Part shown: piece by piece, positions 13,902 to 29,413 of the stretch
Numbering within the stretch: position 1 is the first letter of the stretch
How the letters are laid out: each line of letters opens with the position of its first letter
Source: a virus
Lineage: Duplodnaviria; Caudoviricetes
Strand: one strand, 5' to 3'
Length of the DNA stretch: 59,916 bases
IMG/VR virus record: IMGVR_UViG_3300033067_000350
Coordinates: 1-59,916 of that record
Made by a program: the position numbers and the translations under genes
The notes under the pieces: generated by a model
What the model was told of the DNA's origin: nothing
Seen by the model: the letters and a program-made list of their open reading frames with translations, nothing else
The model's database searches: none

Positions 13902-14512
13902 AGGATGATACCCTTATCAAAATCTTCATATGATGCCCCAGACTTATACTCAGAGATCATCTCATCATCGATGATCACTCTACAATCTGGCAGTACCTCA
14001 GCAATCTCTTTGGGATTGAACCTTGTGAAGACTGGGCCTGGTGCTGAATCCTTAGCCTCTGTGTACATAAAATAACCAACACCATGAGTACACATGTATC
14101 TCATGGTGGTTACCAATTTCAAACAATCCATCTTGTGGTTGCCTTGTGTGTAGGCTAGTGGCCCAAGTATGAACCCGTAGTCAAACTGAGGTTCATCTCT
14201 AAACAGCGGCAGACAATCTTCTGCCACGTGGAAGTTACCACCCTGCCACTTCTGCTTACAAACCTCAATAGCCTCACTGGAACAATCGAATCCAGTATAG
14301 TCAAAGGATTTGTAACCACAAGTCTTGAGGTTGTAAATCAAATCGCCTTTGCCACATCCTGCATCCAGTATTCTGACCCGTTGCTTGGGCATATTGAGGT
14401 GGCGGATGCATATTTGATGGATGCGATCTGCCTTCTTGGCAGACCACATATCAATGACCCTGTTTGGGTCTTTTGAGACAAATCCGTTGATGCGTTTGGC
14501 AATGTGATTCAT
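13895..14512 (-). CDS. Class I SAM-dependent methyltransferase
   Basis: ILDAGCGKG, YTGFDCS, FDY motifs. No DPPY/NPPY/PCQ DNA-methylase motif. Confidence 0.88.
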   Translation of the reverse strand: MNHIAKRINGFVSKDPNRVIDMWSAKKADRIHQICIRHLNMPKQRVRILDAGCGKGDLIYNLKTCGYKSFDYTGFDCSSEAIEVCKQKWQGGNFHVAEDCLPLFRDEPQFDYGFILGPLAYTQGNHKMDCLKLVTTMRYMCTHGVGYFMYTEAKDSAPGPVFTRFNPKEIAEVLPDCRVIIDDEMISEYKSGASYEDFDKGIILW

Positions 14513-14515
14513 AAA

Positions 14516-14588
14516 TGGGCCTTATTGGATTTGAACCAATGACCTGCCGATTATGAGCCGGATGCTCTCACCGCTGAGCTAAAGGCCC
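14516..14588 (-). tRNA. tRNA with CAT anticodon (Ile2 or Met)
   Basis: GGGCCTT/AAGGCCC acceptor, CT-CAT-AA loop, GGTTCAAATCC. CCA not encoded. Confidence 0.9.
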
Positions 14589-14603
14589 ATGCTATTGTCT
14601 ATA

Positions 14604-14676
14604 CAGGATCAGCTGGACTTGAACCAGCAACCTGCGGCTTAGAAGGCCGCTGCTCTGTCCATTGAGCTATGATCCC
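14604..14676 (-). tRNA. tRNA-Arg(TCT)
   Basis: GCGGC-CT-TCT-AA-GCCGC arm; full cloverleaf. Confidence 0.93.
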
Positions 14677-14678
14677 AT

Positions 14679-14757
14679 TGGGAGGCAGATACTGCAACGT
14701 CCCAATTTGCTGAGCGATAATAGGCAGAGTTCACCTTTCGGTTTATCTGCCTCACCA
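14679..14757 (-). ncRNA. Unrecognised structured RNA
   Basis: GAGGCAGATA/TATCTGCCTC closing stem with an internal ACC-GAAA-GGT hairpin. Confidence 0.5.
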
Positions 14758-14760
14758 GGT

Positions 14761-14875
14761 TGTCTCCTGGAGTGTACTCAGTTGCCCGCGGCAGGTCTTT
14801 GAAACCATCATGCCCTGTTTATGTCTTCATTTCCTAAGACGGGCGGCAACCATCGATGCAATGCTTCTCGGACAA
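14761..14875 (-). ncRNA. Unrecognised structured RNA
   Basis: Nested TTGTC/GACAA, GTTGCC/GGCAAC, GCCC/GGGC and GTCTT/AAGAC stems. Confidence 0.45.
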
Positions 14876-15235
14876 TGGAGCCGTGGGGAATCGAACCCCA
14901 GTCTCACAATCCAACTCAAGGTGCGTCTACGGGTGTATCCTGTGATTGTTTCTCGCCAGGTGCTCAGCCACAAGCAGCTGCTGCCTAGCCAACCCAGATA
15001 TCCTCTCATCCTGTCGTCGTCCAGATTGCCCCGACAGAACCAGCCGATGTCAATCCACAGCATATCGGCGTCAGCTGTGGGTCTACTCAGGCCGCCATCC
15101 GCATGGGCTGGGCGTTCTGAGTTGGGAAACTGAAGTTGCCAGTTACGGCTGATGGCCCATTTATTGAGTGTAGCCATCATTACTCAACCCGCTGCTTGCC
15201 TCCATTTGAATGTGATCGAATACCATGTCGGCCCC
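14876..15235 (-). ncRNA. ssrA: tmRNA
   Basis: 360 nt. GGGGCCG/CGGCTCCA acceptor with the G3.U alanine wobble; T arm GGGGTTCGATTCCCC; TAACT resume signal then tag GNFSFPTQNAQPMRMAA* (15140-15087). Confidence 0.95.
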
Positions 15236-15240
15236 GAAAC

Positions 15241-15476
15241 AGGTGCACTGAATGCTTCCATCCAGCACACCCTAGCGCACAGACACCTGAGGGGTCCAGC
15301 CACCGATCTAGCAGCCTCGCCTCCACCTAAGTTTGGTGGTCGTGGGTAATGAGCCCACTACAACAGTCACACGCCAGGCTCCATTGGGCTTTCGCCCCAA
15401 ATCCCCTATTGCACCTCTGCATTTTGTCCATTGGCCGGTAAGCCAACAAGAGGATGACTACTCAGCAACAGCAGAG
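15241..15476 (-). ncRNA. Unrecognised multi-branched RNA
   Basis: AGGTGCA/TGCACCT, AGGGG/CCCCT, AGCCT/AGGCT and CTCTGC/GCAGAG stems plus several short hairpins; no minus-strand ORF in the track. Confidence 0.5.
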
Positions 15477-15498
15477 TCTAGAATGCTATTGGTTCATA

Positions 15499-15552
15499 GC
15501 CTGTGACACGGCATACAGCCGTGTTTCGGCCTAGTGGCCTCATCAGACAGGC
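15499..15552 (-). ncRNA. Hammerhead ribozyme (type I)
   Basis: GCCUGU-CUGAUGA-GGCC(ACUA)GGCC-GAAA-CACGGC(UGUAU)GCCGUG-UC-ACAGGC: complete core, three perfect stems, GUC cleavage triplet. Confidence 0.95.
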
Positions 15553-15554
15553 GA

Positions 15555-15587
15555 TCACTTCTTCTTGCCTTTACACTTTTTACCCAT
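15555..15587 (-). CDS. Lysine-rich micropeptide MGKKCKGKKK
   Basis: AAGGAG RBS 6 nt upstream; stop codon abuts the hammerhead. Confidence 0.4.
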   Translation of the reverse strand: MGKKCKGKKK

Positions 15588-15607
15588 GATGGGCTCCTTA
15601 TGTTAAA

Positions 15608-15681
15608 TCAGGGTAGCAGGATTTGAACCTGCGGCCTTCTGGACCCAAACCAGACGCTCTACCAAGCTGAGCTACACCCTG
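15608..15681 (-). tRNA. tRNA-Pro(TGG)
   Basis: CAGGGTG/TACCCTG acceptor; TCTGG-TT-TGG-GT-CCAGA arm. Confidence 0.93.
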
Positions 15682-15685
15682 TAAA

Positions 15686-15946
15686 ACCAGTCCCACGGAT
15701 GGACGCAGGACTGGTCGGTCTGCAACAACCTTAAAGTGATTAGTTCATAAATGGTCCTCCAAAGCAACCACACTAGCTACTTACTGTAGCATTAACCACT
15801 TAGTTCATTGACGTTAGTCTGTTGACTCCGCACAGACATCATTCAATCACATAGGGGCGGGTTTGTACCCACATAACCTTCATTGGTTTAGCTTTACGCC
15901 TAGTTGCCTAGGCTAACCATAGCTGCTGGGCATCTGCATTGGTTTA
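15686..15946 (-). ncRNA. Unrecognised hairpin-rich RNA region
   Basis: GCCTAG-GCAA-CTAGGC, GTGGGT-ACAA-ACCCGC, GTCTGT/ACAGAC, GCTAC/GTAGC, AAGTGGTTA/TAATCACTT and ACCAGTCC/GGACTGGT stems. Confidence 0.45.
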
Positions 15947-16372
15947 TTACTCCAAATGAGATTTGACCTTGCGCCAATACTCAACAGTTGCCTGTTTTCG
16001 ATCGCCATTGGGCCCGCCATTCCATCGGCGTGCCTTGACTTCATCAGACTCATTGTTGCTGTAATGATTGGTGTAGATGCAATACATCTGGATTGACTTC
16101 TGCCTGTCTGTGCGATCAGTGTATTGGTACCCCAACCCAGAGATTCGGTTGACATCGTCAACCATCTGCTCTGTGATTTGGAGGCATCCCACTGACTTAC
16201 CGCCGTCGCCAACAGCCCCATCATCCCCAGCACTCTCAACTTGGATGATCGCCTTGACAAGTTTGTCCTCCTGCTGGTATCCGGCAACAGCCAGAGCACC
16301 CATAGCTAGCCCAGCCAAGGCAACTGCCACACTAATCCTTCGCATCCTGTTCCCTTTCAACATTAACTCCAA
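15947..16372 (-). CDS. Lysozyme-fold transglycosylase/muramidase with signal peptide
   Basis: AIIQVES.G...GD.G.S.GCLQI and ARRWNGGP motifs; N-terminal hydrophobic segment. Confidence 0.8.
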   Translation of the reverse strand: MELMLKGNRMRRISVAVALAGLAMGALAVAGYQQEDKLVKAIIQVESAGDDGAVGDGGKSVGCLQITEQMVDDVNRISGLGYQYTDRTDRQKSIQMYCIYTNHYSNNESDEVKARRWNGGPNGDRKQATVEYWRKVKSHLE

Positions 16373-16532
16373 GACGGTGGATGAACTCTAACACCTCATC
16401 TATGACCTCATCATCATAGTCCAATCTCAAACTGTCTTCAATACTGACTACATCAGGCAGCTTAACAAATGGATCATCCATCAACCTATCAGCTAGCCTG
16501 GTCAGCCTAACATAATCTGGCTCTTTAGGCAT
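16332..16532 (-). CDS. Hypothetical protein
   Basis: Acidic 66-aa ORF in operon. Confidence 0.5.
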   Translation of the reverse strand: MPKEPDYVRLTRLADRLMDDPFVKLPDVVSIEDSLRLDYDDEVIDEVLEFIHRLGVNVEREQDAKD

Positions 16533-17347
16533 CTGTCCACTCCCTTGTCTGTTCTGAACCTCTTGAACCTTGGGAATTTCAATGCCCCATTGGCAGCTAA
16601 TCCGCTGTAGATCACCTCAACTACCATGCCCATGTATTTACCGGCATTGGCCCAAATCAAATCCCTATCAGCATCCGTGAAGCCAGCACCTACTTTACAA
16701 ATGGGAGCTAGGGTATCTCCATCTTTCAGTGATACCTCAATAGCTCCCATTCTGCCGGCATGTCTACCCTCCCCAGGTAACACTCCAGTCACAACACAAT
16801 CAACAGTTCTGATAGGTTTGAGTTTGTACCACCCATGATAGTGCCCAACCTTCAATACCCAACCCTCAATCGACCGTTGAGTGGCCATATTTAACAGATT
16901 AGCCACATCTGTGGTAGTAAATGGGCCCTCATAAGTCTCAGGCACCTCAAATCCCAAAGATTCCAAAATGGACAACGCAGTTGTTAGCTGTGTTGCCCTC
17001 AAATCCTCACCGTGAAGGAATGGCAGAGCAAAAGGTGACAGCTTCAGTCTGCGATCACCATCAATCAACAGAGTCTTGACGCTGGTCTCAGGTATGTCAA
17101 TAGCATGCAATTCGCAATCCAGCACTGTGTTGACCGGCAACTGTATCACTTGCTCCCTGATGTGCTGGATCTTGCTCATCAATGGCCACAAATCTGACTT
17201 ACCCTCCCTGGTGTTGGCTACAATACCAGAATCTTTGACTGCAACAAATACACGCAGACCGTTCATCTTCAACTGGGCATATTTGACCTTAGTCAAGTGA
17301 TGCCCAGCATACTCATCTGCGTGCAGCAAATCCTTATGGTTGAACAA
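16502..17347 (-). CDS. ATP-dependent DNA ligase (minimal)
   Basis: QLKMNGLR, LDCEL, EGWVLK, WYKLKP, VGAGFTD, LKFPRF..FR.DK. Confidence 0.92.
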   Translation of the reverse strand: MFNHKDLLHADEYAGHHLTKVKYAQLKMNGLRVFVAVKDSGIVANTREGKSDLWPLMSKIQHIREQVIQLPVNTVLDCELHAIDIPETSVKTLLIDGDRRLKLSPFALPFLHGEDLRATQLTTALSILESLGFEVPETYEGPFTTTDVANLLNMATQRSIEGWVLKVGHYHGWYKLKPIRTVDCVVTGVLPGEGRHAGRMGAIEVSLKDGDTLAPICKVGAGFTDADRDLIWANAGKYMGMVVEVIYSGLAANGALKFPRFKRFRTDKGVDRCLKSQIMLG

Positions 17348-26026: not shown

Positions 26027-26532
26027 GGTTGCTCCTGTTCCAAATTGCGGTGCCAATTCTTTGCCGACCTGCCCAAACTTATTGCCCTAGCAATATTGGG
26101 CGGTCTGTAATTTAGCCCCTTGTTCTTCATTCTGGGGTCTGCCTTAGACCTCACTGATTTGGACATATTACTGGCGTGGACTTCTTCATCAACATACTCG
26201 CTGGGTATGCCGTATGTAACGTCAGTACCAGTTACTACATATCTCAAATCAGCAGTACCGTCAGCAAGAGCAATCTCATCTCTAACAGCTAGGGCATGAA
26301 TAACCTCACTCAACTCTTCAACCATCAGGTGGGTTCTGTAAAGCCGTTCATCACCATGATGCTGCGAGTTTAATCCAGGTTGTTTGCATTTTTCAGCAAT
26401 TTCTGCTAGGTGCTTACAAATGTCCAATAGAATGCTGGTGTCGTCAAGCACTCTATTGGACCTTAAATCCATATTGCATGGGAACCCATGCTTCTTATGG
26501 AATGATTCCACATCAGTATTCATCGTCCGCAT
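26023..26532 (-). CDS. MazG-like all-alpha NTP pyrophosphohydrolase
   Basis: V..FH, EELSE, ADG.ADLRYV, EVH.SNMSK, K...Y.PP. Confidence 0.85.
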   Translation of the reverse strand: MRTMNTDVESFHKKHGFPCNMDLRSNRVLDDTSILLDICKHLAEIAEKCKQPGLNSQHHGDERLYRTHLMVEELSEVIHALAVRDEIALADGTADLRYVVTGTDVTYGIPSEYVDEEVHASNMSKSVRSKADPRMKNKGLNYRPPNIARAISLGRSAKNWHRNLEQEQP

Positions 26533-29413
26533 TTGCCACTCCAGTTGCTGGAATCTTGCCCATCTTCATGTCTTTCAACAAAGTGATGAATTCTGGTGTT
26601 TTAACGTACCACCTCTTCACTCTGTACAACGCGTGTTTTCTCACCAACATAGATAGCAAACCTCTGGCTATCTCTCCATCCACTTCACACCAATCCTGAA
26701 GGTCAATCAATGTGACTTCATCGGCGTGTAACAGATGGTCCACCAAATCCTTTGGGTGTTTGGTGGCCAGCAAATTCCTTCTTACCACAGCACCGTCGAT
26801 GATGGAGTCGGCAAACTTCTGAGCTGCACTGAAATCCTTATATCCAAACACGCTAGACCCGTACATCCTTTTCAACCAGTTATAGATGAAATTGACGTGG
26901 TCTATGGTGACTTTGAGAATCTGCCTGTTGCCTTCTTCAGTGCTAAACAATCTAGCTGCCAATGCGCAAGATAGTCTGGCTATCTTGAAACGCATAGTAC
27001 CTCTGTCAACTAGGGGCAATGCCTCACTAAACTCAGAGCACAAAGATGCGGCATGATCTATGCAAGCAATCTCGGCATCCCTATCAATTCTGACTTGATC
27101 TGCTGTTCTGGTCCAAGCCCACAAAATCAGCTTACGACACAAATCTGATGTGTACAGGTGTGGGTGTTGGGGCTTATTTTTGGCCAACTTTGAAATTTGA
27201 GAGGGGTCAATCTCATTAGCACTCATAACCAATGCTACATCAAATCGTCTAACATCTTCAAGACTGCCCATCAATTCTAGCACGGTCTCAATGCCAAAAT
27301 TATACGCTGACACTGGTCTATCGCTACGTGGGTTGCTGATCATCAACAATCGTGTGCGAGCATGGGCCATTCTCTTCTCAATCTTGGGTATCTGGGCAAA
27401 CCCTGATGATCTCATATCAGTCAGCTTGCCCAGCACCTCAATTGGCGTGCCTTTGATCTCTTCGCACACAACCAATCGTCTATCATGAGTGGGAATAGCT
27501 CCCCAACTAACCCACCATCTATTACCAGCACTCTGCTGTAGACCGCCCAACAATCCTGCTGTGGTGGCATTCTTGCAATCCACCCTCTCGCCCAGCCCGT
27601 AGTGCCTCATAAGCATCTGAGTTGCTTCTGACTTGCCCTGAGACGAGTCTCCAACTATCAAAGAATTGACCCAGCCATTTCTGTGCTGCCCATCAAATAC
27701 CATGTATAGTGGCGAATGGTAGGTCAAATCAATTAACAAATGGAGATCAGGCCTAAAGTAGATGTGGGTGACATTGGCTTCAAAGTCATCATAGATAGAC
27801 TTGAGTTGCTCTTCAGCACTGCCTTTGAAGATATCAAGCGGTTCCAATTCTGAGTCTTGTGGAGTGTAGGCAAGCAGGCTGTCTTTAGCTTCCGACACCT
27901 CATCTAACAGCAAGCAAGCCTGCTGGTTTCTGGGGTGTGGGAATACTCTGCCTGAGAATGTATATGGAGTATTCAACTCAACCTTATGACCAACCACCAT
28001 AGCAGGCAGAGTCACGTGATCGCTGTTATCGCCGCCAATTTGCAACTGTGGGGTCAGTTTTACATCGATGACGTCGTGGTGGTCCACTACCTGACAAACT
28101 GCTGTTCTGCACGGCGGCATTCTCAAAGACTGAAAGATGGCTTGTCTTTGAGCAGCTGCCGGAGCATTCACCACAGACAAAATGCCAAACGCAGTGCCTT
28201 TCACTGTCAGTGTAACCATACCCGTAGTGGGATCAGGATCAATGGGCCTAACTGGACACCAATGGCAGTGCTGTTGATCTTTGGCGCAATTTACCTTCAC
28301 AGTACGTGGGGCAAGATATGGGGCTTCATCCATAGATTGGACTACAGCCTCAACAATGATCTTCTTACCAACATTCTCAGCCTTTGCTGCTTGTGAGAGT
28401 TTCACCTCAACAGCTATAGGCTCAATGATGTCGTCTTCCAACAAATCTGAGACATACTTAGTACCTGACTGAATCAGTTTGGCCCAGTCATCATCAGTCC
28501 TGCCTTGGGCCTCCCAATCATTTATGTCGCCCTTTGGATGGGCATTAATATCCAATGGCAATTGGATGATTTCAACTGATTCAGCATCGTAACAGATTTG
28601 GGCAGCAACTTTTCTAGCTGCTGTCTTGCCTCCCAAATCAATATCCATGCAAATCAGAACCTTCTTGCCCTTCAACAGTTTGTTGAAGTCCCTATCCCAA
28701 GCACCTTCGCCAGCAGTGACTGCTACAGCACCTACTCCAAATTTGTTGAGTCTATGCTTAGCAACTAGGGCTTTGCATTCCCCACCACAAATCATCACTG
28801 TGGGGAATTCAGTCTGCTCAACTTGGAACAGCCTAATCTGGCTGTATCCCTTCAAATTGCGCATCTTCTCAGGGCCTGGTGCCCCGGGTTTGTACAAACG
28901 GACGTTTACAACATTCCTATCCTTGTCATAGACGGGGATAGTAATGCGTCCATCATTATACCCTATTCTTGCCTCTCTAAGCATGTCATCAGTGATGGCA
29001 CGCTTTCTGAGGGCTGCAAGTAATGGACCAGCACTCCAAACCTTCTCATGCCATCTCTCAATCAATTCCTGATTGACAGCTTTGACTTGAGTCAGTTCAT
29101 ACCTGTTGGACAATTCTTCTACAACCGATGCCCTATCAACATGTTTGCCTTCCTTCTTAGCAATGATATGCTGGATGAGCGATATGATATCACCCTTGGC
29201 ACCACATGTTGCAGCTTGGCATTTCCAAACATTGCGTTCAGTGTTCAATTGCAATGAGGGCGTCTTGTCCTCATGCACTGGACACTTACAATTCACTTCA
29301 TTATCGTTTTGAGGTTCAAATGGCCAATTCAATCTCTCCAATTCTGTGAGAGCATGAATATTTTCAATTGGTAGTTTGGTACTCAACTTGTCGCTCCAGG
29401 GATGGAAAACCAT
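26513..29413 (-). CDS. Primase-helicase fusion: CHC2 Zn finger + TOPRIM + MCM-like AAA+
   Basis: CPVHED.TPS..C...C; GECK..D.D..G..KGDIND; C/C/C/C Zn site; GDSSQGKS, GL.GG, EE, SNP, RRFD. Confidence 0.85.
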   Translation of the reverse strand: MVFHPWSDKLSTKLPIENIHALTELERLNWPFEPQNDNEVNCKCPVHEDKTPSLQLNTERNVWKCQAATCGAKGDIISLIQHIIAKKEGKHVDRASVVEELSNRYELTQVKAVNQELIERWHEKVWSAGPLLAALRKRAITDDMLREARIGYNDGRITIPVYDKDRNVVNVRLYKPGAPGPEKMRNLKGYSQIRLFQVEQTEFPTVMICGGECKALVAKHRLNKFGVGAVAVTAGEGAWDRDFNKLLKGKKVLICMDIDLGGKTAARKVAAQICYDAESVEIIQLPLDINAHPKGDINDWEAQGRTDDDWAKLIQSGTKYVSDLLEDDIIEPIAVEVKLSQAAKAENVGKKIIVEAVVQSMDEAPYLAPRTVKVNCAKDQQHCHWCPVRPIDPDPTTGMVTLTVKGTAFGILSVVNAPAAAQRQAIFQSLRMPPCRTAVCQVVDHHDVIDVKLTPQLQIGGDNSDHVTLPAMVVGHKVELNTPYTFSGRVFPHPRNQQACLLLDEVSEAKDSLLAYTPQDSELEPLDIFKGSAEEQLKSIYDDFEANVTHIYFRPDLHLLIDLTYHSPLYMVFDGQHRNGWVNSLIVGDSSQGKSEATQMLMRHYGLGERVDCKNATTAGLLGGLQQSAGNRWWVSWGAIPTHDRRLVVCEEIKGTPIEVLGKLTDMRSSGFAQIPKIEKRMAHARTRLLMISNPRSDRPVSAYNFGIETVLELMGSLEDVRRFDVALVMSANEIDPSQISKLAKNKPQHPHLYTSDLCRKLILWAWTRTADQVRIDRDAEIACIDHAASLCSEFSEALPLVDRGTMRFKIARLSCALAARLFSTEEGNRQILKVTIDHVNFIYNWLKRMYGSSVFGYKDFSAAQKFADSIIDGAVVRRNLLATKHPKDLVDHLLHADEVTLIDLQDWCEVDGEIARGLLSMLVRKHALYRVKRWYVKTPEFITLLKDMKMGKIPATGVANADDEY

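Follow-up and report, generated by a model that had tools for sequence, protein, structure and literature searches.

The window analysed here is a whole virus record (IMGVR_UViG_3300033067_000350; 59,916 nt), estimated to be 91% complete. PHROGs and Pfam gene content placed it as an uncultivated, siphovirus-like phage of about 60 kb with genes for terminase, portal, capsid, tape measure, helicase, primase, PolA, ligase, ribonucleotide reductase, and a DNA-hypermodification module. The minus strand holds every ORF assigned to a family, all five RNA genes, and a hammerhead motif. The motif sits in a non-coding gap of a 1.2 kb RNA-gene island, between a lytic-transglycosylase (SLT-domain) gene upstream and the DNA-hypermodification module. 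The preliminary description of this DNA had placed the motif inside a tRNA/tmRNA cluster, and the annotation agreed, with tRNA-Pro, tmRNA, tRNA-Arg, and tRNA-Met around it on the same strand. In minus-strand order the features are:

15681-15608, minus strand: tRNA-Pro (UGG), without encoded CCA (ARAGORN; Rfam tRNA 67.3 bits)
15599-15555, minus strand: Shine-Dalgarno AAGGAG (15599-15594), 6-nt spacer, and 10-codon ORF (read directly)
15552-15499, minus (coding) strand: type I hammerhead ribozyme (sequence, MFE fold, descriptor match)
15505/15504, minus strand: predicted self-cleavage site, after C17 (15505) and before A1.1 (15504) (counted from the sequence)
15498-15236, minus strand: non-coding leader of 263 nt with several hairpins, from the hammerhead to the tmRNA
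15235-14873, minus strand: standard one-piece tmRNA (Rfam RF00023, 88.8 bits vs a gathering score of 47)
14677-14603, minus strand: tRNA-Arg (UCU) (ARAGORN, Rfam)
14589-14515, minus strand: tRNA-Met (CAU) (ARAGORN, Rfam)
14512 (start), minus strand: methyltransferase ORF, 205 aa (ORF list; Pfam methyltransferase matches)

The hammerhead starts 55 nt past the tRNA-Pro 3′ end. Between the two lies the lysine-rich 10-codon ORF (MGKKCKGKKK, putatively translated), with its ATG at 15587 and a TGA that ends at 15555. On the other side, the leader contains a 14 bp hairpin (15272-15241) that ends 5 nt 5′ of the first tmRNA base. It also contains a TTG-started ORF of 40 codons (15449-15327, minus strand) without a Shine-Dalgarno motif, which we judged non-coding solely because of its start context. 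ARAGORN called the tmRNA at 14876-15235 with a tag peptide, and its acceptor stem has a G3-U pair. None of the four RNA genes of the island (tRNA-Pro, tmRNA, tRNA-Arg, tRNA-Met) encodes CCA, so the host must add the CCA ends; neither a CCA-adding enzyme nor an RNA ligase gene was found among the 52 ORFs scanned with PHROGs and Pfam, a set that leaves aside about ten small structural-module ORFs. Only 2 nt (14514-14513) separate tRNA-Met from the methyltransferase ORF, and any ribosome-binding sequence of the methyltransferase would therefore fall inside the tRNA.

On the minus strand from 14300 to 16600, a promoter scan returned two promoter-like sites only, both upstream of the transglycosylase ORF, and a consensus scan returned no terminator; no promoter- or terminator-like site lay inside the island. 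Because the island is without a recognisable promoter or terminator of its own, it is probably transcribed within a long transcript, and co-transcription of its genes is plausible. Directly 5′ of tRNA-Pro, a hairpin of 7 bp and a 14-nt loop that leads into UUUUAC (15722-15683, minus strand) is weakly terminator-like and was unflagged by the consensus scan. Two DNA runs of one study had identical sequence and offered no variation to read. We rejected a decayed second hammerhead at 15909-15893, hinted at by a direct repeat, since its alignment was not significant (56/500 shuffles were equal).

Read directly on the minus strand, the hammerhead consists of GCCUGU / CUGAUGA / GGCC-ACUA-GGCC / GAA / ACACGGC-UGUAU-GCCGUGU / C / ACAGGC. 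Stem I is open with 6 bp, which together with the element order and the descriptor gives a type I topology. Stem II has 4 bp, a loop of ACUA, and a G10.1-C11.1 closing pair, while stem III has 7 bp, a loop of UGUAU, and A15.1-U16.1 as its first pair. All 17 helix pairs are Watson-Crick and the stems are paired up to the core, which is intact (C3-A9, G12 A13 A14, the A15.1-U16.1 pair, and C17, with H17 not G). The MFE fold of the 54-mer was the hammerhead three-way junction (-26.1 kcal/mol, z -3.8, equalled by 2/200 shuffles). Sequence reading, pairing, and fold thus agreed with the complete core and three uninterrupted stems reported in the preliminary description, and an independent count recovered its predicted cut site after GUC, with C17 at 15505 and N1.1 at 15504. 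Hammerhead cleavage leaves a 2′,3′-cyclic phosphate upstream and a 5′-OH downstream (PMC6765202).

The descriptor search found no other hammerhead of any topology in the window besides 15552-15499. One thousand dinucleotide shuffles of the window gave 18 loose matches (stems ≥4/3/3) and none at the observed quality (≥6/4/6). From composition, the expected number per window was 1.4e-5 when liberal loops and G-U pairs were allowed and 2.3e-10 when only Watson-Crick pairs and the tight loops seen here counted, or 3.6 vs 6e-5 over 250,000 windows. Because no shuffle reached the observed quality and only about 6e-5 such motifs were expected across the scan, chance origin of the motif is excluded, even at whole-scan scale. 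A comparison with the Rfam hammerhead models, proposed earlier as a check, yielded no match at a gathering score: RF00008 scored 23.6 bits vs 48.5 with a permuted alignment, RF03152 scored 19.1 bits vs 56.3, and RF00163 did not match even at E ≤ 10. The type I hammerheads of 20/20 other compact loci from phages and genomes also missed the Rfam thresholds (best scores 27 bits vs 34 and 28.2 bits vs 52), and the miss therefore does not weigh against the motif. The limit is the models' own, as they do not cover the compact type I form. The motif is a genuine and probably active hammerhead.

Natural hammerheads owe their fast cleavage at physiological Mg2+ to tertiary contacts of stem I with loop II, and minimal hammerheads are slow at cellular Mg2+. 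We inspected flanks and folds and found no evident stem I extension or pairing of loop II (ACUA), by methods to which non-canonical contacts are invisible. With no such contact in evidence, the hammerhead looks like a compact "minimal" form. When flanks were included, models that leave out tertiary structure and co-transcriptional folding put the equilibrium share of the complete fold with all three helices at 0.01-0.19, down from 0.57; stems II and III persisted.

To place the motif among other hammerheads, we sampled 80 viral loci out of at least 123 matching a core pattern and 50 loci from bacterial genomes. The hammerhead descriptor, which requires uninterrupted stems beside the core and can miss variants, was passed by 32 of the viral loci (48 failed) and 37 of the bacterial ones. 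tRNAs lay within 450 nt in 1/32 descriptor-positive and 0/48 descriptor-negative viral loci, and within 600 nt in 1/37 descriptor-positive bacterial loci, for a combined 2/69 within 450-600 nt. In the viral case (L105) a type I hammerhead is 64 nt upstream of tRNA-Pro-Gln-Trp, and in the bacterial case (L184) the hammerhead is 206 nt upstream of tRNA-Arg, both on the same strand as the tRNAs. We also took a reverse sample of 80 from at least 119 viral loci with a tmRNA- or tRNA-Ala-type 3′ end (222 kb), of which 28 had a tmRNA and 37 had tRNAs. None of the 80 held a descriptor hammerhead, including within 1.5 kb of the 28 tmRNAs. The exact tmRNA 3′-end word occurred in five viral loci that had only 28 nt in common, and a hammerhead was present in 0/5. 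No general association of hammerheads with tRNA or tmRNA genes was seen, in samples small enough to be compatible with a modest enrichment.

The usual context of the sampled hammerheads is a protein gene. Among the 69 descriptor-positive loci (types I and III), an ORF start lay within 40 nt downstream in 40 and an ORF stop within 10 nt upstream in 14, both by a crude ORF criterion, and 22 of the 40 had a Shine-Dalgarno-like motif with the start codon. Three viral contigs (L225-L227) carry the exact 28-nt 3′ end of the tRNA-like domain of this tmRNA, at places where ARAGORN calls no tmRNA or tRNA.

The most likely job of the hammerhead at this locus is to split a long transcript, and we lean, with somewhat better than even confidence, towards a genuine and probably active compact type I hammerhead that makes an intergenic cut in one such transcript. 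The island would be transcribed within that transcript, where the 54-nt motif would fold into the three-way junction and cut itself after C15505. The upstream product would carry the upstream message, tRNA-Pro, the 10-codon mini-ORF, and 48 nt of ribozyme, ending in a 2′,3′-cyclic phosphate. The downstream product would start with a 5′-OH and carry 6 nt of stem I, the 263-nt leader, tmRNA, tRNA-Arg, tRNA-Met, and the genes beyond. Independent of the host, the cut would punctuate the transcript and uncouple its two halves. Mature tRNA and tmRNA ends still need host RNase P and 3′-end enzymes, to which those of tRNA-Pro and the tmRNA would be left.

The predicted cut lies 103 nt past the 3′ end of tRNA-Pro, with another 269 nt to go to tmRNA G1, and at these distances it would give neither RNA a mature end. 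The evidence does not support a dedicated part in maturing tRNAs or the tmRNA. The earlier idea that the ribozyme processes the array can be kept in a loose sense, in that the cut would fall between tRNA-Pro and the tmRNA if the motif is active and the transcript is single. The complete core, perfect helices, sense-strand orientation, and non-coding gap all argue for a transcript-splitting cut. So do the exclusion of chance, the promoter and terminator scans of the island, the frequency of compact type I forms in viral contigs, the protein-gene context of the 69 sampled loci, and the similarly placed type II hammerheads of distant relatives (PolA 38-51% identical). Against it stand the unmet Rfam thresholds, the lack of a detected contact between stem I and loop II, and the drop in fold share with flanks. 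The neighbours also differ from the usual phage context, as the downstream one is not a protein gene and only the 10-codon ORF precedes the motif. No relative sharing the island was found among those compared, so conservation and covariation lend no support.

Hammerheads that flank genes in phages and prophages were proposed by Perreault et al. (2011; PMC3088659) to process polycistronic transcripts. A 2019 review (PMC6765202) repeats the proposal for phages and describes the purpose of bacterial and phage hammerheads as still undefined. Like the intergenic examples presented in the 2011 study, the motif has a canonical core and lies on the sense strand of a phage genome in a non-coding gap, with a transcript-cutting role proposed. 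Unlike them as described there, it is a single copy instead of a gene-flanking set, sits between two stable-RNA genes, and has no evident pseudoknot or loop-loop contact. It also departs from them in its flanks, with a 10-codon ORF on the upstream side and, at the place where a gene usually begins, a 263-nt non-coding leader. Distant relatives of this phage have hammerheads of the intergenic kind between protein genes.

Of the alternatives, the one that fares best makes the hammerhead a dedicated maker of a 5′ end, either excising together with RNase P a functional 269-nt RNA with a 5′-OH (15504-15236) or insulating the folding and maturation of the tmRNA precursor. The downstream product keeps just 6 nt of ribozyme, as expected for such a device, the next 987 nt hold RNA genes only and no convincing protein gene, and the hammerhead was upstream on the same strand in both sampled loci with nearby tRNAs (L105 and L184). 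However, the leader that would form this RNA matched no Rfam family, and its fold was not significantly better than that of shuffles (z -1.66; 12/200 folded equally well). Leader plus ribozyme had no blastn match in 50,697 phage records. The absence of hammerheads from the 28 phage tmRNA loci and from the five viral loci sharing the tmRNA 3′ end also counts against it, and RNase P does not need a prior cut. We regard a dedicated 5′-end maker as unlikely. A more elaborate version would treat the hammerhead and the tRNA-like end of the tmRNA as paired signals, the ribozyme setting a 5′-OH and RNase P a 3′ end, that release a discrete 269-nt phage ncRNA, with ribosomes that terminate on the 10-codon ORF possibly gating the folding of stem I. 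Its logic resembles that of tRNA-like elements that set the ends of neighbouring RNAs, and the locus would then exemplify a broader, undescribed tendency of phages to place hammerheads at the head of stable-RNA cassettes; we think this rather improbable.

An intact motif without a useful role is also conceivable, as a recent passenger of an inserted RNA-gene cassette or as a minimal hammerhead too slow at cellular Mg2+. Relatives of the phage bear on this. Viral contigs scanned with one protein at a time (the 205-aa methyltransferase, the ligase, or PolA) yielded no relative. Homologues of PolA with about 70% identity were recovered (P0002-P0006; longest contigs 13-47 kb), and a search with a PolA alignment yielded 31 metagenome and 9 viral loci, 40 in total, with PolA 38-51% identical among the better ones. 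These 40 loci hold two tRNAs only and no tmRNA, and RF00023 found a tmRNA in 0/7 related virus records (L010, L014, and L019 were outside this search). Five of the PolA relatives carry type II hammerheads, each 0-3 nt past a stop codon:

L007, 4735-4787: type II hammerhead
L010, 13029-13086: type II hammerhead
L012, 2056-2111: type II hammerhead
L014, 12739-12789: type II hammerhead, first of two
L014, 13449-13508: type II hammerhead, second of two
L038, 21556-21611: type II hammerhead

In the loci with downstream sequence available (L010 and both L014 hammerheads), another ORF begins some 20 nt further on. L041 gave one weak hammerhead match. Because the relatives carry type II hammerheads, no tmRNA, and two tRNAs, the wider clade appears to use hammerheads as intergenic marks, but the RNA island seems particular to this phage. 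In the record of another related locus (G003, the record of L039), positions 25022-28150 contain seven short stretches that match the T-arm portion of the tmRNA model and recur evenly, at distances of about 400-1000 nt; they may be tRNA-like minihelices between genes.

The lack of a tmRNA in related records, the two tRNAs only across related loci, and the absence of a hammerhead at the matching place are what a passenger would predict; the single copy in the genome, the undetected tertiary contact, and the weakly populated full fold in context likewise suit a passenger or a slow ribozyme. A 15-nt direct repeat (14/15 identical; 15744-15758 and 14508-14522) flanks the whole RNA island and hints at insertion. 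Its downstream copy takes in both the 3′ end of tRNA-Met and the start codon of the methyltransferase, and its upstream copy follows GGAGG and opens a 2-codon ORF only. The repeat may be an insertion scar of the island, but it is weak on its own, as 7% of shuffles have an equal one. Among the best 30 matches listed for the 2-kb island against 50,697 phage records, matches fell at tRNAs only. Against a role-less motif, 17 Watson-Crick pairs and an intact core are hard to keep without selection, barring very recent acquisition, and the hammerhead orientation matches transcription. We judge a motif without a useful role to be quite improbable.

Less likely still, and in our view very improbable, the hammerhead would serve its upstream side, giving the 10-codon message and tRNA-Pro trailer a structured 3′ end with a 2′,3′-cyclic phosphate, or coupling translation to cleavage through ribosome-controlled folding. 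The ATG follows the consensus AAGGAG at a spacing of 6 nt, the stop codon ends 2 nt short of stem I, and an ORF stop close upstream recurs in 14/69 hammerhead loci and in L007, L010, L012, L014, and L038. However, the putatively translated 10-codon ORF may be fortuitous and has no homologues for comparison, and the upstream partners elsewhere are normal-sized genes. A chance look-alike that is no ribozyme, for which only the unmet Rfam gathering thresholds speak, is next to impossible given the shuffles, the scan-wide expectation of 6e-5 in 250,000 windows, and the same Rfam miss in 20/20 compact type I loci.

HDV-type ribozymes cut at their own 5′ edge. At this locus the motif is of the hammerhead class, as the preliminary description held in assigning it to a different class from the theta ribozymes of phages, and no HDV-type Rfam match was found in the window or region. 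Theta (HDV-like) ribozymes are postulated to remove the 3′ trailer of tRNAs, and genes for a CCA-adding enzyme and a DRB0094 RNA ligase are found enriched in the phages carrying them (Kienbeck et al. 2024; PMC10879173). Neither gene is obligatory. As in that account, a motif of a self-cleaving class lies in a phage tRNA neighbourhood, and the tRNAs are without encoded CCA. Unlike the arrangement described there, the hammerhead is 55 nt off the tRNA and has its predicted cut close to its own 3′ edge, 103 nt past the tRNA, and no CCA-adding enzyme or RNA ligase gene accompanies it among the 52 scanned ORFs. Because of this geometry and the lack of these genes, the analogy to theta ribozymes drawn earlier is weak and holds only loosely. 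Full-text literature searches turned up no primary account of hammerheads within tRNA or tmRNA arrays of phages. One article (PMC13481778) speaks of hammerheads "adjacent to tRNAs in bacteriophages" and refers for this to Kienbeck 2024 and Liu et al. 2024; the former concerns HDV-like ribozymes and its text contains the word hammerhead 0 times.

The hammerhead looks like a known kind of phage transcript-cutting mark in an uncommon position, and not like a new tRNA-maturing device. As a single, unconserved instance, it does not alone change current knowledge. Because it lies between stable-RNA genes that are matured by known host enzymes, it is a clean natural case of an added, host-independent cut, and the extra cut poses questions of transcript uncoupling, 5′-OH protection, and insulation of RNA folding. 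It also illustrates that annotation based on Rfam overlooks compact type I hammerheads of phages; in our test, 0/20 compact loci reached threshold.

Compact type I hammerheads with an open stem I of 5-7 bp are common in viral contigs. The motif resembles sampled examples (L063, L085, L098, L123, and L195) in its length of about 50-55 nt, sub-threshold Rfam scores, open 5-7 bp stem I, short stem II, hairpin stem III, and GUC/GUA-type site. Many of these share the stem II/loop II consensus GnCUUnAnnAGnC, in place of which this phage has GGCC-ACUA-GGCC; the MAFFT alignment of the set was structurally wrong in the 3′ half. Three IMG/VR contigs (L001-L003) carry type III hammerheads with an identical 24-nt block, CUGAUGA-GGCCACUAGGCC-GAAAC. 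Unlike in this phage, their stem III is open and their flanks are unrelated, with blastn matches over 24 nt only; a protein gene follows after about 20 nt, and no tRNA is present within 1.5 kb. Seven of the sampled loci (L063, L075, L076, L085, L098, L120, and L123) form a type I subgroup with the consensus GnCUUnAnnAGnC, in which scores fall below all Rfam thresholds and the 3′ flank is often A-rich at its start.
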